Positions 46,315-56,659 are shown, numbered from the stretch's first letter. The stretch: 64,000 bases of DNA from Bacteroidota bacterium (GCA_021789975.1 JAJYIT010000001.1:12247-76246), one strand, 5' to 3'. The notes: a model not told the origin generated them from the letters alone. Made by a program: numbers and translations.

Positions 46315-48948
46315 ATGAGCGAAACACTACCGTTGATTGCTGCGGTACTTTCGCTCCTATTGACGGCATCATACGGGATACTAAAATATCACCGCGCCGT
46401 CAGAGCAGAGTTGCGGTTCGCGCGGCGGATCAAAACACTCACCGAACTGAAAACCACGAGAGAGTATTCCGTGGAGAAAGTCCTCCGCGGAATACTTGAG
46501 TCATTAATCGGTGCTTATGAGTCTCCGAAAGGAGCACTCGAATTTCACAGCAAATTACACGGCGACTATTCGATAGAAATCAACACCGGATACCGTCTTC
46601 AGGATCAACCCGCAAAAGGCTTGATAGAGGGGTTTCTTCGATCTTATATGAGGTATTCATGTTTTGACAAAGGTAAAGTCGCACTTTCTTTCATTATCGA
46701 TGCAGAAGAATTCTCCTGCTGTGTAGACGTAAAATGCGGTCAAGTGATTTCTCAGAATGAATACCTCTATGTACAGGAACTAATCAAGGAGAAAATTTCG
46801 AGACTACTCCTCTGGAGACTTCACAATGCGGTTACCGCTGTGCTATCGTCCGTCGATACACCTTCGGCAATTTGTGACAGGCAAGGAAACTTTATACTTG
46901 AGAATAGTGCCTTCAAGGGGGCATATCCCGATTCGCTCAAGTCGGATATTGCCACGGCATTCCTGGGCCTCGTGAAACCGGATAGAAACTCTTCCTCGAT
47001 TACTTTCGAGAAACTTCAGAAGCCGATCATTGTCCGAAAAATCGACAATGAGTTGTATTCACTTGTTTCGACTGCCGCGGATCACACCGGCGTTAGAGAA
47101 TCTATCTTTGCAAAAACGCTGGATGAACTTAGCATTGGTATGGTGGAGATTGAGCCGGGGCAAAACGAATTTAGTGGCGAGTTCAGGATTGTCTCGATCA
47201 ATCGGGCATTCCGTGAGATCTTCGGTCTCGAAGGCTCAAATTCTCAATCCGATGAAATAGCGGAGATATTGTCCGTCGCAATCAGAAGCCGCGATTCGGA
47301 CCATCTCGGGTCATATCAGCGTGCTGCCGTCCTGTCTTACATGCGACACGACGGCATAAAGGTTCGTGTGCGTGCGACTATTTCAGAAGGGGAAACGAGC
47401 ATTTTAGTTTTCGAGCCACTCGAGAATTCTCAGATGCTAGTGTTGTCTTACAGGCATGTGTTGGACTCCGCGGGAAAAATGTTTGCGTCGGGGAATCTGA
47501 GGAATTTCTTGATCGCTGTTCAGGAAGCATCGCATTCTGATGGCGTAGCCTTAGTAAAAAAAGACGTTGACGGCAGCCGATTCGAGATTGTTGAGAAGGT
47601 CGGCTTCATGATTGACGTTCCACTCTCCATCTTTCAAGAGACGACGTACCACGACCTTGTAAATTCGCACGGATGCCTGGTTGTCCCCACCAAGCTGGAT
47701 GGCGATGCCTACGGCGGAATTCTTGCTCTGAAGCCGAATGAGGAAGCTACAGACATTATCCTAATGGCTGCGAAACTTCTTGAGGCATTTGAATCTCGCG
47801 AACGGGATAAACACAAGATGCGCGAGCAGCATTTGAAACTTGCTGCTGAGGCCGCCAAAGCCGAAATGGCAAACAATTTGAAGTCACAATTCCTTGCAAA
47901 TATGAGCCATGAAATAAGGATACCGCTCAACTCGATCATCGGTTTTGGAGAAATTCTAAACGAGGAGCACGCATCTCTGACCTCTGATTTGTTCAATGAC
48001 TTCAGTGCGAACATTGTCTCGGCAGGGAAGCACCTCTTAAATCTGATCAATGACATCCTGGATCTGACGAAAGTCGAAACAGGCAATATGCATCTGGATC
48101 CTGAGGACTTTTCGATCAATGAGATGATTGAAAGCGCCCGTCGGACACTTACGCCGCTTCTCAACGACAGATCTGTCCGCTTGGATGTTGAGATTGACAG
48201 TGACCTTGGTATCATGAATGCTGATCCGGTGAAGTTCAAGCAAATCCTCTACAACCTTCTGAGCAACGCCATAAAGTACAGCCCTAAGGGGAATTCCGTA
48301 CGCCTCGTTGCCGCGAAGTCGGGCGACGGAATTGAAATAAAGGTCATTGACAGGGGGTCCGGAATTAAAAAGGATGACCTTGGGAAGTTGTTCAAACCTT
48401 TTTCACAACTGGATTCGAAGCACGGCGGTACTGGTCTCGGTCTCTCTCTTACCAAAAGGCTTGTAGAACTTCATGGAGGGTCCATTTGGATCGACAGTAC
48501 ATACGGTAGTGGTACGACCGTCATAGTGTATTTGCCGTTCGCTCGCCAGGCGCCCGCCCAGATGACTTCTGAAAGCAGAGTCATGGAACCTGAGCACGTT
48601 CTCCCTTTTGTCACCGAAGATGATCAGCTCTTCAACCTGTTCAATACCGTCTTGGATGGAACCGGGTATAAAGCCGAAAAAGTAGACCTGAAATGCGATG
48701 GTGCAGTTGCGAGAGAGAGCGGTTGTGCTGGAGTGCTGGTTATCGACTCGGCTGCCGACTTGGCTGCTGATAGGATCATGCCTTATTGTGAGAACGCCAA
48801 TAGAATACTGCTTTTCGTCAACCATGAAGGTGCCGAATCAACTCCGGATTTCCTGAAGGGTTGTGATTCCAGAATGAGTTTCATCGACAGACGCAATTTC
48901 ACGAAGAGTTCAGTCCTGACTCAGCTAAACATTGCGAGCAACTCCTGA
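46315..48948 (+). CDS. Sensor histidine kinase with N-terminal TM, PAS/GAF-like sensor region, HisKA, HATPase_c and a C-terminal receiver-like extension
   Basis: The H-box is MSHEIRIPLNSIIGF, the N-box LYNLLSNAIKYS and the G-box GGTGLGLSLTKRLVELHGG. Confidence 0.9.
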   Translation: MSETLPLIAAVLSLLLTASYGILKYHRAVRAELRFARRIKTLTELKTTREYSVEKVLRGILESLIGAYESPKGALEFHSKLHGDYSIEINTGYRLQDQPAKGLIEGFLRSYMRYSCFDKGKVALSFIIDAEEFSCCVDVKCGQVISQNEYLYVQELIKEKISRLLLWRLHNAVTAVLSSVDTPSAICDRQGNFILENSAFKGAYPDSLKSDIATAFLGLVKPDRNSSSITFEKLQKPIIVRKIDNELYSLVSTAADHTGVRESIFAKTLDELSIGMVEIEPGQNEFSGEFRIVSINRAFREIFGLEGSNSQSDEIAEILSVAIRSRDSDHLGSYQRAAVLSYMRHDGIKVRVRATISEGETSILVFEPLENSQMLVLSYRHVLDSAGKMFASGNLRNFLIAVQEASHSDGVALVKKDVDGSRFEIVEKVGFMIDVPLSIFQETTYHDLVNSHGCLVVPTKLDGDAYGGILALKPNEEATDIILMAAKLLEAFESRERDKHKMREQHLKLAAEAAKAEMANNLKSQFLANMSHEIRIPLNSIIGFGEILNEEHASLTSDLFNDFSANIVSAGKHLLNLINDILDLTKVETGNMHLDPEDFSINEMIESARRTLTPLLNDRSVRLDVEIDSDLGIMNADPVKFKQILYNLLSNAIKYSPKGNSVRLVAAKSGDGIEIKVIDRGSGIKKDDLGKLFKPFSQLDSKHGGTGLGLSLTKRLVELHGGSIWIDSTYGSGTTVIVYLPFARQAPAQMTSESRVMEPEHVLPFVTEDDQLFNLFNTVLDGTGYKAEKVDLKCDGAVARESGCAGVLVIDSAADLAADRIMPYCENANRILLFVNHEGAESTPDFLKGCDSRMSFIDRRNFTKSSVLTQLNIASNS

Positions 48949-49008
48949 TACAGCGTTGCAGTTGATCGTGCAGGCTGTGCCCCCTCGAGCTGGCGCCGCC
49001 CATTTGTT

Positions 49009-49824
49009 CTAGGGTGGCGCTGGCTCTCCTTTTTTCCCGATCAATCCATCGACTAGCTCGCTTGCGCTGAAGCACGGTTGCGCTGTCCCTAATGCCCTCG
49101 ATAGCCGAAGATAATTTGGAATTCTCAATCCACAATTTCTAATCACCGGTCGTGCGCGGGCGCTGCCAAAGAACGCGTCACGGCTTCCGCAGTATTGAAT
49201 TTGCCCGCGTGAGAGCATAAGAAGGTCATCTGCCCACTGCAGCATAAAGTCCAGATCATGGGTCACAATCACGATGGTTTTTCCAAGCTCCTTAAGTAGC
49301 GAGACGAGTTGGCCAAAGTAATTTTTCTCTCTCATGGACAAACCCGCGGTCGGCTCGTCAAACGCGATTATCGGCGTGTTCATTGCAGCCGTTCCGGCGA
49401 TTGACACCAGTCGTCTCATGGCGTAGTTCATCTCGAACGGATTTTGGCTCAATGCATCTTTGAGGTGGAGCGTTTCCACTAGCGGTAAAAACAGGGAACC
49501 GTCTCGTCCGGTGTTCGATATTCCAAAACGAATTTCCTTCTCCACATTGGATGCAAAGATCTGGTCGTCAGGATTCTGAAAACTCAGTGCACACATTGAG
49601 GCAATCTGGCTCAGCCGATACTCGCTGGTCATTACCTCTCCAAGCCAGATTCTTCCACTAGATGGCTTCAGTATCCCGTTCATTAGTTTTAGAAAGGTAG
49701 ATTTGCCGGAGCCATTGTGTCCGACCAGCAAAGTCGTTCTGCCTGAAGCCAGCCGGCAGGAAATACTTTCCAGCGCATTTGTGGACCCGAAGCTATGGGT
49801 TACCTGCTGGAACTCAATTCTCAT
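49009..49824 (-). CDS. ECF-transporter ATPase subunit (EcfA'-like ABC ATP-binding protein)
   Basis: Walker A is GHNGSGKST. Walker B is IIAFDEPTAGL. The H-loop is VTHD. Confidence 0.85.
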   Translation of the reverse strand: MRIEFQQVTHSFGSTNALESISCRLASGRTTLLVGHNGSGKSTFLKLMNGILKPSSGRIWLGEVMTSEYRLSQIASMCALSFQNPDDQIFASNVEKEIRFGISNTGRDGSLFLPLVETLHLKDALSQNPFEMNYAMRRLVSIAGTAAMNTPIIAFDEPTAGLSMREKNYFGQLVSLLKELGKTIVIVTHDLDFMLQWADDLLMLSRGQIQYCGSRDAFFGSARARPVIRNCGLRIPNYLRLSRALGTAQPCFSASELVDGLIGKKGEPAPP

Positions 49825-50651
49825 TTAAGGCTCATGAGTGTTTCAAGTGCTTGCTTGTAATTGAGAATGTAGCTCTCCTTCACGGTGCTATCTCTAATAA
49901 TCCCGTGTCGTCTTGCCCGCTGAACGCACTTGGTCCAGGCGGGAAGATCGATGTGAGTTTCCGCTTCTTCGGATAAGATTTCTTCGAGCTTTCCATCCGC
50001 AATCTTCGTTCCATCTGCGAGTATTATTATGCGATCTGCAACGCTTAGCGTCAGATAGGGGTCATTTTCGGCGATAATGATCGACATTTTTCCCCTCAGA
50101 TGCGCCAGGACTTCTGATAAGTAATGGACGCTTTCGGGATCCAGCTGGCTAAGCGGCTCATCGAGAATGAGGATCTCGGGACGCTGTGCGAGCGCAGAGG
50201 CAAGGACTACTTTTTGTTTCTCCCCGCCGGATAGCTCAAGCGGATTACGATCTGCCAGATGGGAGATGCGAGTCGCGGTCATTGCCTCTCCCGCTCTTCT
50301 GATGATTTCCTCTCTTTCCATGCCTAGGTTTTCACATCCGAATGCGACTTCTTCAAACACCGTAGTTCTCAAGTAAGAAATTTGCGCATAGAAGTTTTGC
50401 ATTACGATCGCCGTCCGCGGCCCCCCTCCGCTCGGATCACTCTGGCGGTGCAGTCTGCCGGTTGCCGCGGCGGCCGGAAACGAGCCGAGAAGATCTGCTG
50501 CAGCAAGACACAACGTGGACTTGCCGGAGCCGCTCAGTCCACTTACAACAACAGTTTCTTTTCTTTCAATTTGCAGATCGAGATTCTGTAGTGCCGGGAC
50601 GGCCGTGGCCGAGTAGCAGAAAGAGAAATTCTCGAAAGAAATCAGAGCCAT
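49821..50651 (-). CDS. ECF-transporter ATPase subunit (EcfA-like ABC ATP-binding protein)
   Basis: Walker A is GLSGSGKST, the signature LSGGEKQKV and Walker B ILILDEPLSQLD. It overlaps the next gene by 4 nt. Confidence 0.85.
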   Translation of the reverse strand: MALISFENFSFCYSATAVPALQNLDLQIERKETVVVSGLSGSGKSTLCLAAADLLGSFPAAAATGRLHRQSDPSGGGPRTAIVMQNFYAQISYLRTTVFEEVAFGCENLGMEREEIIRRAGEAMTATRISHLADRNPLELSGGEKQKVVLASALAQRPEILILDEPLSQLDPESVHYLSEVLAHLRGKMSIIIAENDPYLTLSVADRIIILADGTKIADGKLEEILSEEAETHIDLPAWTKCVQRARRHGIIRDSTVKESYILNYKQALETLMSLK

Positions 50652-51409
50652 TTAGTTAACCTCAGCAGACCTATCAGAACCACTATGATGAAGATCGATC
50701 TTCCGATTACCATGCCGGATTTAGTTTCCTCTATCACAAGAAGGGATTTAGTGTGTTTTGAGGAAAGCCGCGCAGCTTTGTACTCGGCGAAATGAGCGGC
50801 GCGCAAGGCAATCCCGCGATCGAGACTTTCGGTGATGTAGGAATAAGACAGAGGTACAAGCATTGGAAGAAGATACCTTAAGCGGGACGCTAGGTTCTTC
50901 GTGGCATCCAGTCCTCGTGCGGATTGGGCGATGTATACTCTTTGCAGCTTATCGCGCATAAGGTGTACCATAGCGATAGATAATAAGAAAATGTAAACCA
51001 ATCGTCGATCTGCACCACGAGCTATTAAGTATTGAGAAATAGTTTCCGTCTTCACTGTCGAGAAATACCAGCTGACTGATACGACGATAAGGATGAGCCG
51101 AACTGCCACTCTTGAGGCAAAGAGGATCCCGGCATCCTTGAAACTTATCGGACCAATGGAGAATACGGGTCTTCCCACGAAAAAAATACCGTTGATCAAA
51201 AATCCTATGAGAATGAGCGGGAGAACAAACTTCAGAAATCCACGATAGATGATCTTCCTGTGACGGGATAGAACGGTTGTGATGACAATAATCGCGAGGA
51301 TCGGCAGCTGCCATTCGAGTTTGAAAGCAAAAGCAGCAAGGATTATCGAGAACAATAGGTAGTGGTACAGCGGGTTGTATTTTCGTCGGAAGCTGTCAGG
51401 TGTTGGCAT
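50642..51409 (-). CDS. ecfT: ECF-transporter transmembrane T component (CbiQ/EcfT family)
   Basis: It has about 5-6 TM segments and the conserved coupling-helix motifs ..ARGAD.. and ..AQSARGLD.. (AxRG). Confidence 0.8.
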   Translation of the reverse strand: MPTPDSFRRKYNPLYHYLLFSIILAAFAFKLEWQLPILAIIVITTVLSRHRKIIYRGFLKFVLPLILIGFLINGIFFVGRPVFSIGPISFKDAGILFASRVAVRLILIVVSVSWYFSTVKTETISQYLIARGADRRLVYIFLLSIAMVHLMRDKLQRVYIAQSARGLDATKNLASRLRYLLPMLVPLSYSYITESLDRGIALRAAHFAEYKAARLSSKHTKSLLVIEETKSGMVIGRSIFIIVVLIGLLRLTKWL

Positions 51410-51989
51410 AACCCGGTAGTCTGATCAACACTGAACGCGGAATGCGAGTCAACAGGAAATAGACCACCAGATAGCTTACAGCTTTATCAACCGGATCGGC
51501 GGCGAGCCCCTGCATGAATGCGCTTTGAATGATCGATTTCCCGATGGCACGAAAATAGAGAACAAGGAAATCCGTACCACCCATTGTGACTCCGCCGAAC
51601 ATGAATGCGGCTATTGGAGCGGAAGCTGTGGCGGCAATCAGCCCCTGCACAAGTCCGGCCGGCAGTGCGGTGTACCATCTCTTGAAAACACCGAGCCGGG
51701 CGATCAACCCGGTGTAACCACCGATGACAAGAGCGACCGGGATGAAAAAGAGGAACGTATAGTTGAAGAAGAATCCCAGGGTGAGGTTCGCGAAGAACCC
51801 GGTAAGCATTCCTGCAATCGGGCCTACAATGCACGCGATCATGATTGTCCCGATGGAATCGAGATAAAGCGGCAGCTTAATGAGCTGGACCGCCTGTCCG
51901 ACGACGATGTTGAGTGCAGCACCGAATGCTATCAGCGAGATGGTAGTGGCGTTGACCTCTTTTTCAAACCGGGAAGTGGTGTCAGCCAT
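51396..51989 (-). CDS. ECF-transporter substrate-capture S component; specificity unknown
   Basis: This is a 197-aa, six-TM small integral membrane protein directly upstream of ecfT/ecfA/ecfA', overlapping both neighbours. Confidence 0.7.
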   Translation of the reverse strand: MADTTSRFEKEVNATTISLIAFGAALNIVVGQAVQLIKLPLYLDSIGTIMIACIVGPIAGMLTGFFANLTLGFFFNYTFLFFIPVALVIGGYTGLIARLGVFKRWYTALPAGLVQGLIAATASAPIAAFMFGGVTMGGTDFLVLYFRAIGKSIIQSAFMQGLAADPVDKAVSYLVVYFLLTRIPRSVLIRLPGYANT

Positions 51990-52866
51990 AAAGGCGCGTC
52001 AATGCCGCTTCGAGTCCCGTCAGGCCGGAAACAGGTGAAAAGCTGCCTGCTTCAGTAATGACAGACGAGATCAGTTCGGGTCCGACCATATCGAAATAAA
52101 TGTTCTTAACCTCTATCTGGGGATTTGCATAAATCTCGTGCGGGCTCTCTTCCTTGTTGACGAAATTGACAGCCTTCTTTTCGTTATCGAATTTGAGCAC
52201 GCTTGTTACCGCGTGAAAATTCTTCTTTCCAATCTTGCAGGCAGCCGCAAGGGCAAACGATCCGATTTTATTGACGAGAGTGCCGTCTGAGAGAACGGCG
52301 TCAGCGCCGACGAATGCCGAGTCGATCTTGCCGATGAAGAATCCGATTGACGCGTCTGAAACCAGGATTGCTTCGTGTCCTGCTGACTTGAGTGCGCGTG
52401 CAGTCTGTCTTCCCTCGAATAAAGGTCGCGACTCCATGACGTATACAACAGTATGCTTCCGTTGTGCGGCCGCCTTTTCAAAGGCTTTGATGACAAACTC
52501 GCTCTGGCTCAGTGTCGCGTAAGTCCCTCCGCTCGTTATCAGAGATGACGCCTGTTCTGCCGTTCGTTCCGATGCCTCTCCCACTTTCTGACGCAGTGAG
52601 ATTACGTACCTACCCATTTCTTCTGCGGGCGTCTTTGTGGAAGCCGAGACTATCAGGCGAGCTACGTTGGTGAGAGCTGCCATCTGGGATTGCGCATTTG
52701 ATAGAGTGGCAGCTACTGAATTCAGCTCGGATTTGAAATCCTGATTGGAGGAGTGCTTCTGACAGAAATCGAGAAGGAGGTCAAGCGTATCCTTAAGAAT
52801 CTGTTGCGCGCTCGAAACATTGTCTGTAGCGATCCGATTCGCTCTGTCCAGGTATTCAGTCTTCAT
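51982..52866 (-). CDS. eIF-2B alpha/beta/delta-family protein (sugar-phosphate isomerase-like: MtnA / ribose-1,5-bisphosphate isomerase family)
   Basis: VVYVMESRPLFEGRQTARALKSAGHEAILVSDASIGFFIGKIDSAFVGADAVLSDGTLVNKIGSFALAAACK is the conserved IF-2B C-terminal Rossmann-like core. Confidence 0.8.
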   Translation of the reverse strand: MKTEYLDRANRIATDNVSSAQQILKDTLDLLLDFCQKHSSNQDFKSELNSVAATLSNAQSQMAALTNVARLIVSASTKTPAEEMGRYVISLRQKVGEASERTAEQASSLITSGGTYATLSQSEFVIKAFEKAAAQRKHTVVYVMESRPLFEGRQTARALKSAGHEAILVSDASIGFFIGKIDSAFVGADAVLSDGTLVNKIGSFALAAACKIGKKNFHAVTSVLKFDNEKKAVNFVNKEESPHEIYANPQIEVKNIYFDMVGPELISSVITEAGSFSPVSGLTGLEAALTRLYG

Positions 52867-52939
52867 TTTCTCTCTGATGCTGCGATCGAATTTCGACCGC
52901 GGAATAGTTTAAAGAGCGGGAGAGAAAATTGCAAACAAC

Positions 52940-55279
52940 TCAGAACGCAATTCTTGCACCGATGTTGAAATATCGTGCAGAAAGAAGATTCGGAACTTCT
53001 ATCGGTTGGGTGAACTCCGGCGAAATCGTGTACCATGAATATGATACGATGTTGTTCTTGTTGAATACGTTGAGCACCTCGACATCCAATGTCACACCTC
53101 TTCTTCCGCCCAGAGGAAATTTCACCGTCAATCCCATATCGACCCTGTAACAGAACGGGTATGGGTACACCAGATTGAAATCCGGTACAGTCTGGGTTGT
53201 ATTTCCTGGCCCGTTTACGTTCATCATGGGATGATATAGATATCCTGTGCCGAGCAATATACGGACGTGAGCTTCTGAATTGCGAAACTCGGGCATCGCA
53301 TCCTGCAGGAAGATCCTTATCGTGTGAGTCTGATCGAGGAGACTCCGTTGATAAGGTCCGGTATCTCTCCTGTTTCTGGCAACTAAATAGTCGTACCCGA
53401 TCCATGTGTCCAGCCGCTGCGAAAGTTTTCCTTCGTATTGGAGATCGAAGCCGTAGACATATCCATTATAGTTGTTGGTGTCACCGTAAGTGAGCTGCAA
53501 TTGGTTTGTATAGTAGTAAGGGATCTGTTTGCTGAGATTCTTATAGTAGATCTCAGCCATGAAGTGGGCATCATCTGGATATTTCTTTTCATACCTCAGC
53601 GAGTACTGAATGGCCAACTGCGACCGGAGTCTCTTTGCCTGATCCGGAGTCTTATCCCTTGTTTCGTAGAAGTACGGTGGCTGGTAGTAGTATCCCCATC
53701 CGAAGCTGAACGAGTTTGCAGAGTCCGGTAGGAAAGATAAAGAGGCTCGCGGCGACAGAAGGAACTCTCCGTTGAAAAAATATTTCAGCCCGCGAAGGCC
53801 AGCGTTGACGGCTAGATCAGGTAAAAGAGCGGCTCCTTCCTGTACATATCCGGAGATCGAATTGAATATGAAATTCTGGCTTTGATTTGCAAAATAAGAT
53901 GGTCCTGGGGGCGGAACATAATAGTCAGAATCGTTTAAGACGTTGTTCATGAGTGAATAGCTCAAAGTGATTCCTGCATTCGTGTCATGTGTTCCGTAGT
54001 CTGAATCGAAGTTGGACTTGAGCTCAAGCCGGTCCATGCTGAGACGGTTGTTTGCGAATTCGTATCCGGTCCCAATCTGGGCTACGCCGTTACCGGGATT
54101 GTAGGCGTCAGGCGAGTAGTAAATGTCGTATGATAGGTTCTCATTATATGACTCTCGATCGGAATAGTAAGCCAGCGAAGTCGAAAGGCCGGAGTGCTGA
54201 TCGAAAGGAGTTGTAAGTCTCAACCCGAGAAGGTTGGAGCCGTATCCATAATTATCCGAGCCTGAGAAGTTTAGGTTAATGCGGCGAAAGGCGTTCCACG
54301 CATTCACCGCGAAGTCGCCTGTCCAATCTTCTGGAGTCAGATCAAAAGTATTTCTAGCGGTTATGAAAAGCATTTCCAATTTTGTGTCGTTGGGGAATGC
54401 ATATGTGCCGAGGATCTGGAAATCCGTATACCTCGGGATGTATTTCCCTTTTGTTTGAAGCACCCTTGTGAATGATGAGGGATACGCATAACGAAAGCCT
54501 GCAATCCAGTTCAGCTTGCCTATCCGGTCGTGAAGAGTGATTCCGAGATTGAGGAGGCTGGCATTGACTTCGCCTCCAAGCCCTCGCTCCTGGACTTTCC
54601 TGTAGCCGACAATAAGAACCGACGACATCTTGTCTCCATATTCCGCGGGAAATGTTCCATCATAGAATTTGAGGCCGGCCACCATATCCTGGTTGATCAT
54701 CGATTGACTTTCCTCAATACCCTGCTGGACAAGGTACGGACGATAGATTTCAAACCCGTCGAGGTAAATGAGATTGGCATCGAAGTTTTGTCCGCGAACG
54801 TTGTACGCACTCGACAGCTCGTTGTTGGAACTGACGCCGGGCAGAATAGTCATGCCCTTGAGAATGTCCGAATAAACCGAAGGAATGTTCTGCAAATCCT
54901 TTGGCGGAATGGTGCTCACACCGGGAGGGGCTTGAAATCTATTCGCGTTTATTACCACTTCCTTTGTCACGTATGCACTCTGCAGAAGGTGGATCGACAA
55001 ATAGAGCTGACTTTGATCTTTCTGAATGTTCACTTCTTTTGTCTCTGATTCATACCCGACGTGACTGAACTGAATAGTATATGTTCCCGGCTGTAGCGCC
55101 AAAGAAAAGTCGCCGAGGCTGTCGGTGACTGTGCCGTGATTTGTTTTCAAGAACACTACATTCACCCCCTTTATGGGATGCCTGCTCTGTGAATCTATGA
55201 CCCGTCCTTTTACAAGAACCCTGTTTACCTGCGCTTGCGCCGAAAGCGAAGCGACAATGAGAAGCATGATTGTCTTCAT
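52940..55279 (-). CDS. TonB-dependent outer-membrane receptor with CarboxypepD_reg domain
   Basis: Signal peptide is MKTIMLLIVASLSAQAQ. The CarboxypepD_reg block is VKGRVIDSQSRHPIKGVNVVFLKTNHGTVTDSLGDFSL. The plug reads AYNVRGQNFDANLIYLDGFEIYRPY, and the C-terminus is ...NIGARIAF. Confidence 0.9.
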   Translation of the reverse strand: MKTIMLLIVASLSAQAQVNRVLVKGRVIDSQSRHPIKGVNVVFLKTNHGTVTDSLGDFSLALQPGTYTIQFSHVGYESETKEVNIQKDQSQLYLSIHLLQSAYVTKEVVINANRFQAPPGVSTIPPKDLQNIPSVYSDILKGMTILPGVSSNNELSSAYNVRGQNFDANLIYLDGFEIYRPYLVQQGIEESQSMINQDMVAGLKFYDGTFPAEYGDKMSSVLIVGYRKVQERGLGGEVNASLLNLGITLHDRIGKLNWIAGFRYAYPSSFTRVLQTKGKYIPRYTDFQILGTYAFPNDTKLEMLFITARNTFDLTPEDWTGDFAVNAWNAFRRINLNFSGSDNYGYGSNLLGLRLTTPFDQHSGLSTSLAYYSDRESYNENLSYDIYYSPDAYNPGNGVAQIGTGYEFANNRLSMDRLELKSNFDSDYGTHDTNAGITLSYSLMNNVLNDSDYYVPPPGPSYFANQSQNFIFNSISGYVQEGAALLPDLAVNAGLRGLKYFFNGEFLLSPRASLSFLPDSANSFSFGWGYYYQPPYFYETRDKTPDQAKRLRSQLAIQYSLRYEKKYPDDAHFMAEIYYKNLSKQIPYYYTNQLQLTYGDTNNYNGYVYGFDLQYEGKLSQRLDTWIGYDYLVARNRRDTGPYQRSLLDQTHTIRIFLQDAMPEFRNSEAHVRILLGTGYLYHPMMNVNGPGNTTQTVPDFNLVYPYPFCYRVDMGLTVKFPLGGRRGVTLDVEVLNVFNKNNIVSYSWYTISPEFTQPIEVPNLLSARYFNIGARIAF

Positions 55280-55480
55280 TACTGCTCTGTCTAAAGAGAA
55301 AAGAATTATGGGACTTGTAGCTAAGGAAGGATTAGAATCGTCGCCCTGATTGAATATCCATGCAGAATGGTATCACATTTCTTCCCGGGAGTCAAGGCCC
55401 GACTGTGGAGCATGACCGTATGGAACTAATTCTAACAGTTTCTGTTGGATTTGTTGAAAGAAGACCAACTGCGGAGACCC

Positions 55481-56659
55481 ATGAACCATTACAAGTACGT
55501 TATCGTCGGCGGAGGAATGACAGCGGATTCAGCCGTCAAAGGCATCAGGGACTTTGATACCATAGGGACAGTTGCGATCTTCAGTGAGGAGAAGGTACTT
55601 CCATATAACAGGCCTCCTCTTTCAAAGGGAGTGTGGAAGGGCGAGCAGCTCGATACCATCTGGAGGAAAACCGACCAATACAAAGTGGATTTCTATCCTT
55701 CAATTACTATAACCCATGTAAGTCCGTCCGACAGATTTGTTAAGTCAGGTGATGGCCAATCGTACACATACGAGAAACTACTCCTTGCCACAGGTGGCTC
55801 CACGCGAAAACTTGCATTCGGAAACAACGACATGATCTATTTTCGTACACAAGGAGACTATACGAACCTTCGGATCGCGGCCGATAAACATCAGGAATTT
55901 GTCGTCATAGGCGGAGGCTTTATCGGCTCAGAGATAGCTGCGGCTCTTGCGATGAACAACGAAAAGGTGACTATGATACTTCCAGAAGAAGGAATCGGAA
56001 GAAAGATTTACCCGAAGGGATTATCATCGTTCCTCGTGAAGTACTACAATGAGAGAGGCGTAGTTGTCCGTGCAGGCGAGTCTGTGAAAGCAATAGAAGG
56101 GAATGTGTCCCGTTATGTCATAAAAACCAGTAGTGGTAAAAGTGTTTCGGCGGGCTGTGTTGTAGCAGGCCTGGGAATAACGCCCAATGACTCGCTCGCC
56201 AAATCGGCAGGTCTGGCAACCGATAATGGAATAATAGTGGACTCTCTTGTGAGGACAACCGACCACGATGTGTTTGCCGCTGGCGATGTTGCTAATTTCT
56301 ACAACTCAGCTCTTGACAAGAGAATGCGCGTGGAGCATGAAGACAATGCCAACAAGATGGGAACAATTGCGGGACACAACATGACAGGCAGGATGGAGAG
56401 ATATGATTATCTACCTTTCTTCTACTCGGATCTCTTCGACTTGGGATTTGAGGCCGTCGGAGAGCTCGACTCAAGACTGGAAACGTATGAAGACTGGATT
56501 GAACAATACATGAAAGGAGTCGTGTACTATCTTGCGGATGGACTTGTCAAGGGAGCGCTGCTTTGGAATACTTGGGGAAAGGTTGACGAAGCCCGTGAGC
56601 TTGTAAACTCGAAGAAAAGTCAAACAAAGATGTCCCTAAAGGGAATGATACGAGACTGA
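55481..56659 (+). CDS. FAD-dependent pyridine nucleotide-disulfide oxidoreductase (ferredoxin-reductase/AIF-like)
   Basis: The FAD GxGxxG is YVIVGGGMTADSA, the NAD(P) GxGxxG FVVIGGGFIGSEIAAAL, and FAAGDVA is present. Confidence 0.85.
   Translation: MNHYKYVIVGGGMTADSAVKGIRDFDTIGTVAIFSEEKVLPYNRPPLSKGVWKGEQLDTIWRKTDQYKVDFYPSITITHVSPSDRFVKSGDGQSYTYEKLLLATGGSTRKLAFGNNDMIYFRTQGDYTNLRIAADKHQEFVVIGGGFIGSEIAAALAMNNEKVTMILPEEGIGRKIYPKGLSSFLVKYYNERGVVVRAGESVKAIEGNVSRYVIKTSSGKSVSAGCVVAGLGITPNDSLAKSAGLATDNGIIVDSLVRTTDHDVFAAGDVANFYNSALDKRMRVEHEDNANKMGTIAGHNMTGRMERYDYLPFFYSDLFDLGFEAVGELDSRLETYEDWIEQYMKGVVYYLADGLVKGALLWNTWGKVDEARELVNSKKSQTKMSLKGMIRD

Follow-up and report, generated by a model that had tools for sequence, protein, structure and literature searches.

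A predicted five-gene operon of Kryptoniota couples an IF-2B-family protein to an ECF importer, with a TonB-dependent receptor as a probable chance neighbour

Introduction

Do six closely spaced genes that would link an outer-membrane receptor to an inner-membrane importer form a single transport operon? This question is raised by positions 49,009 to 55,279 of a 64,000-nucleotide stretch of DNA (referred to below, at its full length, as the window) from a Bacteroidota bacterium (GCA_021789975.1 JAJYIT010000001.1:12247-76246). The minus strand of this region carries genes for a TonB-dependent receptor (TBDR), a protein of the IF-2B family (the IF-2B-like protein) and the S, T, A and A' components of an energy-coupling factor (ECF) importer. 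The source names of the homologues place the host lineage in the Kryptoniota, and the hosts are diderm. An earlier note on this DNA had read all six genes as one operon, in which a TonB gate and the ECF importer would provide a two-membrane uptake route for a ribose-derived, nucleoside or methylthio-sugar compound, and in which this compound would be isomerised by a relative of methylthioribose-1-phosphate isomerase (MtnA) and ribose-1,5-bisphosphate (R15P) isomerase.

Our comparison of the locus with those of other genomes points to a different answer. The conserved unit appears to be a five-gene operon (IF-2B-like gene, EcfS, EcfT, EcfA and EcfA') with its own predicted promoter, and the IF-2B-like protein carries residues that are not those of the known isomerases.

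Results

Conservation of the five-gene block

The comparison within the genus covered 26 genomes, and the locus was retrieved from 20 of them. The backbone of the genus locus (20 genomes) consists of a rightward histidine kinase gene, the leftward genes A', A, T, S and IF-2B, a rightward oxidoreductase gene and a leftward Yip1 gene. The complete block IF-2B-like-S-T-A-A' is present in 14/20 genus loci (and in 15 genus genomes overall), and it recurs in deeper Kryptoniota metagenome-assembled genomes (MAGs), whose IF-2B-like proteins are just 47-49% identical. A second survey, of relatives of the S component, took the best 80 loci out of a total of at least 578 in the genomes (11 from Kryptoniota and 69 from other phyla). 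An IF-2B-family gene adjoins the S gene in all 11 of the Kryptoniota loci versus none of the 69 others, and the five-gene operon therefore seems, among these best 80 loci, to be restricted to the Kryptoniota. Within this lineage the block is conserved well beyond chance. The tight coupling of its genes, which the earlier note had claimed, was borne out both by this conservation and by the overlaps between the reading frames.

The locus has decayed in some relatives. One genus genome (G016) retains the IF-2B-like gene and both ATPase genes, the S and T genes being missing from a 589-nt gap (L015 4912-5501).

The TBDR gene lies outside the conserved unit

The TBDR gene occurs between the IF-2B-like and oxidoreductase genes in 2/26 genus genomes only, namely the window genome and G012. 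The latter has no ECF genes, either at that locus or elsewhere in the genome, and thus the TBDR adjoins the ECF genes in the window genome alone. At least 14 further genomes of the genus have orthologues of the receptor (56-77% identity), either on a different contig or at a distance of more than 0.8 Mb, and the loci that contain them have no neighbours in common with one another. On this comparative evidence, the TBDR is best regarded as a chance neighbour, inherited separately from the five genes, which would have landed just upstream of their promoter in the ancestor of the window genome and one relative. Because the receptor appears to be a chance neighbour, no two-membrane uptake route is supported, and the proposal of such a route in the earlier note fails on the lack of synteny between the TBDR and the ECF genes.

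The Plug domain of the receptor scored 28.4 bits (cut-off 23.9), and its 22-strand barrel domain, aligned over residues 311-738, scored 25.2 bits, just under the cut-off of 27. Assignment to the SusC/RagA family (TIGR04056) was rejected, as the match (54 bits vs a cut-off of 368) involved the N-terminal part only.

Two genes without a counterpart in the window flank the TBDR gene in G012 (L013 1834-2502 and 4968-5381), one coding for an outer-membrane protein of the OMP_b-brl_2 family and the other for a secreted protein of 137 aa with no family match.

A conserved promoter-like element in the spacer

The 73-nt spacer between the TBDR and IF-2B-like genes contains the element TTGCAA-17 nt-TAAACT, which begins 5 nt past the TBDR stop codon and lies directly upstream of the IF-2B-like gene. 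It is present in 21/21 genus loci, with a spacer of exactly 17 nt, regardless of whether the locus also holds the TBDR gene or the ECF genes, and among deeper Kryptoniota loci there is a variant, TTGAAA-17-TAAACT. The element is a rare one: there is a single match in the window (0.01 expected) and a single match in the whole 4.7-Mb genome. It agrees with the sigma-70 consensus at 8/12 positions, i.e. under the 9/12 threshold of our scan, and was found by cross-genome comparison. It reads as a predicted sigma-70-type promoter of the IF-2B-like gene. Taken together, the adjacency of the TBDR in 2/26 genomes and the presence of this element between the two genes contradict the idea of a single operon made up of all six genes.

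Gene structure of the region

The coordinates of the genes and other features are collected in Table 1. An open reading frame check confirmed the six minus-strand genes of the earlier note exactly, and its distances (the 73-nt gap after the TBDR gene, the overlaps of 8, 14, 10 and 4 nt at the later junctions, and the 165-nt leader) were all measured as described there. Its family names also agree with the Pfam and NCBIfam matches, that of the S component being weak and sub-threshold. A sigma-70 consensus scan of the divergent intergenic region gave promoter-like hexamers only. An Rfam scan of positions 48500-56000 yielded no match at E<=1, and so agrees with the earlier note, which had recognised no riboswitch in the leader.

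Table 1. Features of the analysed region (positions within the window)
Feature	Position	Strand	Remarks
TBDR	52940..55279	-	779 aa; N-terminal CarbopepD_reg, Plug, barrel (Pfam)
IF-2B-family protein	51982..52866	-	294 aa; PF01008 162 bits
ECF S component	51396..51989	-	197 aa; uncharacterised family
EcfT (CbiQ family) coupling component	50642..51409	-	255 aa; PF02361 53 bits (cut-off 25)
EcfA ATPase 1	49821..50651	-	276 aa; TIGR04520 1.5e-45
EcfA' ATPase 2	49009..49824	-	271 aa; TIGR04521 1.3e-47
Sigma-70-type promoter-like element TTGCAA-17 nt-TAAACT	52906..52934	-	conserved across genomes
Divergent intergenic region between the TBDR gene and an FAD/NAD(P) pyridine-nucleotide-disulphide oxidoreductase gene (PF07992)	55280..55444		165 nt

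The ECF module

The gene order S-T-A-A', with its three overlapping junctions, is conserved in at least 46 loci. The EcfT protein contains both X-Arg-Gly coupling motifs (SARG at residues 163-166 and LDRG at 196-199), and it is the sole CbiQ/EcfT match in this 98%-complete genome. Because of this single match, the module was considered the only ECF system of the genome. All of the features checked are present, which identifies it, at the level of prediction, as a dedicated (group I) system.

The S component was the most difficult to classify. It matched NF045596 (the CD3073 family) with 121.5 bits and PF12822 with 24.8 bits (cut-off 30.7). Membership of the CD3073 family was rejected, as the curated cut-off is 180 bits, and one further candidate for true membership (locus L131) also remained sub-threshold, at 97 bits. 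There was no sequence match to the S component in the PDB, and a literature search on CD3073 found nothing. Its AlphaFold2 model (pLDDT 89) displays the six-helix S-component fold and matches S components only: the top PDB matches were RibU, ThiT, FolT, BioY and PanT (probability 0.96-1.0, TM-score 0.5-0.6), with RibU and ThiT the best. Classification against the ECF families, proposed in the earlier note as a check, therefore returned an ECF S fold of an uncharacterised family. Relatives of this protein are encoded in at least 578 loci of Kryptoniota, Ignavibacteria, Bacteroidota, Chloroflexota and Armatimonadota.

The two ATPases are asymmetric. EcfA has canonical Walker A and Walker B motifs and an LSGGE signature, and the histidine of its H-loop is replaced (AEND, according to the alignment with PDB sequences). 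EcfA' has canonical Walker A and Walker B motifs and an intact H-loop (THD), combined with a degenerate signature (MNYAM for LSGGQ in the alignment to CbiO, 3gfo). This asymmetry is conserved over 46 loci of Kryptoniota, Ignavibacteria, Bacteroidota and Chloroflexota, and it predicts a pair in which one ATP site is of the consensus type and the other is degenerate. Such a combination of sites is a feature of heterodimeric ABC exporters.

The IF-2B-like protein represents a Ser/Glu class

In PH0208, the R15P isomerase of P. horikoshii, catalysis depends on Cys135 and Asp204 (the C135S substitution gives an inactive enzyme), the 1-phosphate is bound by Arg22, Arg65 and Gln166, and the 5-phosphate and sugar by Ser137, Lys240, Asn214 and Lys215; in human eIF2B-alpha the position of Cys135 is occupied by Ala (PMC5789824). 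This position was mapped in the IF-2B-like protein by means of an HMMER alignment to eIF2B-alpha (THAYS vs TLSQS) together with the published data. It is occupied by Ser120 (TLSQS), in place of the THCHS of the isomerases, and the equivalents of Arg22, Arg65 and Gln166 are Ser18/Ser19, Gln59 and Glu151, the last lying within ESRPLFEG. The remainder of the pocket has been kept: Asp189 (GAD), the equivalent of the catalytic Asp (Tk Asp202, Ph Asp204), Asn199 and Lys200 (NKIG), Ser122 and Lys225. In 60 aligned relatives S122, E145, P148, E151, K200 and K225 are invariant, and D189 and N199 nearly so.

The two substitutions are not independent. We aligned the protein with 158 relatives, among them the 150 best from an exhaustive search and the second IF-2B paralogue of the genome, and found Ser at position 120 in 147/159 sequences and Glu at position 151 in 150/159, the two signatures covarying. 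About 147 of the sequences combine Ser with Glu. Cys and Gln occur together (THCHS, ETRPxxQG) in exactly 9/159 sequences, the second paralogue of the genome being one of them. For the predominant type we use the name "Ser/Glu" class, which is coined here and is not a curated one; the class is PH0440/aIF2B-like. Judged by its residues, the IF-2B-like protein belongs to this class, i.e. Cys is replaced by Ser and Gln by Glu, with the sugar and 5-phosphate ligands retained. The class is large and uncharacterised: our literature search found nothing on Ser-type IF-2B proteins, nor on IF-2B genes in operons with ADP-ribosylglycohydrolase. The Kryptoniota proteins form a monophyletic clade (support 1.0) with a long stem, nested inside the Ser/Glu class. 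Outside the cluster of the query, the exhaustive search retrieved a single 50%-identity representative, the next relatives being at most 40% identical.

Every NCBIfam equivalog scored far under its cut-off. The candidates rejected in this way included R15P isomerase (TIGR00511, 115.9 bits vs 314), which is also incompatible with the absence of the Cys and of the 1-phosphate ligands, and MtnA (TIGR00512, 62.4 bits vs 279). A bona fide MtnA with the Cys/Gln signature (TIGR00512, 390.9 bits vs 279) is encoded elsewhere in the genome, on another contig. A pathway from R15P to RuBisCO was rejected as well, as a search for a RuBisCO or RuBisCO-like gene with PF00016 found none in the genome, which is 98% complete. 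Thus, of the claim that the gene codes for an isomerase of the MtnA/R15P isomerase family, the family membership (PF01008) and the catalytic Asp stand; the identity as such an isomerase does not, given the absent catalytic Cys, the lost 1-phosphate ligands and the scores below the cut-offs. The protein is not a canonical isomerase of either kind, and probably no isomerase at all. From its residues, it would be unable to use the Cys mechanism, and its most probable ligand or substrate is a sugar 5-phosphate with no phosphate at position 1.

The AlphaFold2 model of the protein (pLDDT 96) superimposes on 1vb5, 3a11 and eIF2B subunits with TM-scores of 0.80-0.87. Because the superposition is equally good on PH0440 aIF2B, R15P isomerase and the eIF2B subunits, the fold alone does not discriminate between them.

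The MtnA gene of the genome is overlapped by a preceding gene for a PfkB-family kinase (L133 4709-6662, contig C79). MtnK is not known to be a PfkB-family kinase. A PfkB partner would be unusual for MtnA, and the two genes may form a salvage or pentose-bisphosphate-type pair.

Genomic contexts of other Ser/Glu proteins

Among the nearest Ser/Glu relatives are NUDIX-IF-2B fusions of approximately 420-470 aa (P0199, P0206, P0212, P0219, P0222 and P0273). Two unrelated operons (L052 6207-14382 and L136 5471-12267) have the composition GntR/UTRA - Ser-type IF-2B - ADP-ribosylglycohydrolase - ABC importer. The importer is Bmp-type in one and SBP_bac_1-type in the other, and the extra genes code for a nucleoside hydrolase or for AIRS and a 2-oxoglutarate (2OG) oxygenase. 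From their gene content, these operons resemble a module for the breakdown of a ribosyl compound that has yet to be described. A further context is QRPTase - PASTA - IF-2B - HAD. The recurrent links with importers and with ribosyl- or NAD-type chemistry offer a weak and indirect indication of a ribose-related role. Accordingly worded, the claim of a ribose-derived or nucleoside substrate keeps some indirect support from context (NUDIX domains, ribosyl-cleaving enzymes and PfkB kinases), and its more specific part, a methylthioribose-type isomerase, does not survive.

One of the two GntR/UTRA operons originates from Actinoplanes bogorensis and the other from a MAG. A divergent IF-2B-like gene (TLSYS, RSCPKCEG, GCD) was also noted, which overlaps a gene for a threonine-synthase-family pyridoxal phosphate (PLP) enzyme (NF006050, 538 bits). 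The latter is followed by a short-chain dehydrogenase gene, and this order is kept in two genomes (L138 2421-5167 and L139 4666-7424, sister family).

Substrate clues for the ECF family

In eight Chloroflexota loci (L107, L108, L115-L117, L119, L122 and L128), S-T-A-A' is followed by a gene for a ribokinase-like PfkB kinase (PF00294, 183 bits), for which the best NCBIfam matches, IolC and ribokinase, were both under the cut-off. This link would fit a sugar or nucleoside substrate. Rfam searches of 23 homologous ECF loci at the gathering threshold detected tRNAs only and no riboswitch.

We also compared the presence of the ECF module in the 26 genus genomes (16/26) with that of genes for cofactor biosynthesis. 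RibH was found in 24/26 genomes, LipA in 20/26 (the window genome included) and ThiC in 3/26, the ECF module being retained in each of the three genomes with ThiC. ECF presence was not anticorrelated with RibH, LipA or ThiC, and for this reason riboflavin, lipoate and thiamine/hydroxymethylpyrimidine (HMP) gain no support as substrates, although they stay candidates.

ThiC is absent from 23/26 genus genomes, including that of the window. This pattern suggests that reliance on an outside supply of thiamine or HMP is widespread.

Discussion

Comparison with known systems

The closest described arrangement is MtaTUV, the predicted methylthioadenosine ECF family (TCDB 3.A.1.33; PMC3654945), with the reservation that the likeness is one of description and not of MtaT sequence. 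In common with BioMNY, CbiMNQO and MtaTUV, the module has (i) S, T and two A genes in one operon, (ii) two EcfT XRG motifs, and (iii) a six-helix S fold; the pairing of the transporter with an IF-2B-family gene is shared with MtaTUV-type loci. It differs from all of these in that its S component cannot be placed in any characterised S family, its IF-2B partner is something other than MtnA, one ATP site is predicted to be degenerate, and the hosts are diderm.

With R15P isomerase (TK0185 of T. kodakarensis, 3A11; PH0208, 5YFS and related entries) and MtnA, the IF-2B-like protein shares the fold (TM-score 0.81-0.87), the Asp, the Asn-Lys sugar ligands and the 5-phosphate ligands Ser122 and Lys225. 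It differs from them in the change of Cys to Ser, in the replacement of Arg22, Arg65 and Gln166 by Ser, Gln and Glu, and in having no RuBisCO partner. The best matches in both sequence and structure are the non-isomerase IF-2B proteins, PH0440 aIF2B (1VB5) and eIF2B-alpha. PH0440 has the same Ser/Glu signature (THSFS, ESSPDYEG); in contrast to it, the protein described here is bacterial, only 24% identical, and encoded in a transporter operon with no translation-factor context. We know of no established small-molecule function of PH0440.

The ribose utilisation systems (RUS) of Bacteroidetes, as outlined in the preprint that describes them, combine TonB-dependent uptake across the outer membrane with enzymes for the scavenging of ribose and nucleosides (bioRxiv 10.1101/574913). 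The window differs in that its TBDR is not SusC-type and shows no conserved link to the operon. In RUS, SusC/SusD pairs are combined with ribokinases and nucleoside hydrolases; these systems are not known to include an ECF module or an IF-2B protein.

What does the operon do?

The reading that we favour, with belief and doubt about evenly divided, is that of a promoter-equipped five-gene operon in which a small ribosyl or sugar compound would enter through the dedicated ECF system and its 5-phosphorylated form would be bound or converted by the IF-2B-like protein. The gene structure and its conservation, the independence of the TBDR, the promoter element and the residue substitutions are observed; the substrate class and any catalysis are what we infer here. 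According to this proposal, the ECF system would take up a small ribose- or sugar-containing compound, which would carry or yield a 5-phosphate without a 1-phosphate, and the IF-2B-like protein would bind or convert it, Glu151 perhaps replacing Cys as the base. Several observations weigh against the proposal. About 9/26 genus genomes keep the IF-2B-like gene and its promoter without an S component, and the complete genome G024 shows the reverse, in that its ECF genes are kept and the IF-2B-like gene is reduced to a remnant (L134 4731-5292). The genomes compared are kin, i.e. non-independent observations. In 27 of the 69 non-Kryptoniota loci, genes for the E1alpha, E1beta and E2 components of a 2-oxoacid dehydrogenase lie directly upstream of the ECF operon, and in 11 of the 69 a Flavin_Reduct gene lies downstream; such links would suit an importer of cofactors no less than one of sugars. 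Moreover, no terminator-like hairpin was found after the TBDR gene, which makes read-through from it possible. A bolder form of our proposal, which we consider distinctly unlikely, is that the Ser/Glu class is a separate enzyme type with Glu151 as its catalytic base, active on pentose or ribosyl 5-phosphates unphosphorylated at position 1; the operon would then encode the first ECF system dedicated to a nutrient of ribosyl or sugar type, as opposed to vitamins or metals, and would have an ATPase pair in which one degenerate ATP site is built in.

The dehydrogenase-ECF loci have their genes on the same strand and come from Ignavibacteria and Bacteroidota MAGs (L070, L074, L078, L081-L084 and others); a Flavin_Reduct gene often follows.

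Alternatively, the two parts of the operon might be no more than positional neighbours, the IF-2B-like gene being a housekeeping gene of the lineage and the importer a cofactor- or vitamin-type ECF system that was placed downstream of it and borrows its promoter. The two would then share no substrate, and the cargo of the importer might serve 2-oxoacid dehydrogenases or flavoenzymes. This explanation, which is doubtful and yet has to be taken seriously, accounts for the unequal presence of the genes (IF-2B-like in 24/26 genus genomes and S in 16/26, either occurring alone) and for the partners of the ECF family outside Kryptoniota, which are the dehydrogenase, the flavin reductase or an acyl-CoA ligase, without a single IF-2B gene in the 69 loci. 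It would also suit the best structural match of the S model, a weak one to RibU, and the rarity of ThiC in the genus. However, the 8-nt overlap and the adjacency of the two genes hold as far as the lineages with 47-49% IF-2B-like identity, ECF presence shows no complementarity with loss of riboflavin, thiamine or lipoate biosynthesis, no vitamin riboswitch was detected in the 23 homologous loci, and Ser/Glu IF-2B proteins recur beside importers of two other classes. It is also conceivable, by analogy with eIF2B-alpha, that the IF-2B-like protein is a non-enzymatic sensor of sugar phosphates that acts as a regulatory partner for the ECF ATPases or for metabolism further downstream. The non-enzymatic PH0440 aIF2B (1vb5) and eIF2B-alpha are its best PDB sequence matches, and eIF2B-alpha is described, in outline at least, as binding sugar phosphates (PMC8187479); the missing catalytic Cys, the translational coupling to the S gene and a degenerate ATPase site that could be regulatory would all be in keeping with such a role. 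Nevertheless, since about nine genus genomes keep the protein without any ECF system, it cannot be a dedicated subunit of the ECF importer, and the strict covariation of Cys/Gln with Ser/Glu and the near-invariant pocket would fit a swapped catalytic base equally well. We regard this role as very unlikely.

There remains the view of the earlier note, namely a single operon of TBDR, ECF module and MtnA- or R15P isomerase-type enzyme, forming a two-membrane route for methylthioribose, methylthioadenosine (MTA) or a ribosyl compound. What speaks for it is the co-directional arrangement of the six genes, with a gap of 73 nt only and no terminator-like hairpin, and the fact that the IF-2B family membership holds. 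We nonetheless find it scarcely credible in view of the evidence given above: one of the two genomes in which the TBDR is adjacent has no ECF module, the receptor's orthologues reside elsewhere among unrelated neighbours, a conserved promoter-like element separates it from the IF-2B-like gene, the protein has neither the catalytic Cys nor the 1-phosphate ligands, the scores are very low (62 bits vs 279 for MtnA, 116 vs 314 for R15P isomerase), and the genome has a real MtnA elsewhere and no RuBisCO-like gene.

Conclusions

To conclude, the juxtaposition of a TonB gate and an ECF importer in the window does not represent a new uptake architecture, as this idea fails when tested against related genomes. 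The significance of the locus lies in the two families that meet in it. The first is a widespread ECF family with a conserved asymmetric ATPase pair, whose S relatives occupy at least 578 loci in five phyla. The second is a large unstudied class of IF-2B-fold proteins, characterised by a covarying swap of Cys/Gln for Ser/Glu, which recurs beside importers, NUDIX domains and ribosyl-cleaving enzymes. The identification of a ligand for either the IF-2B-like protein or the S component would annotate hundreds of genes of uncultured soil and sediment bacteria.

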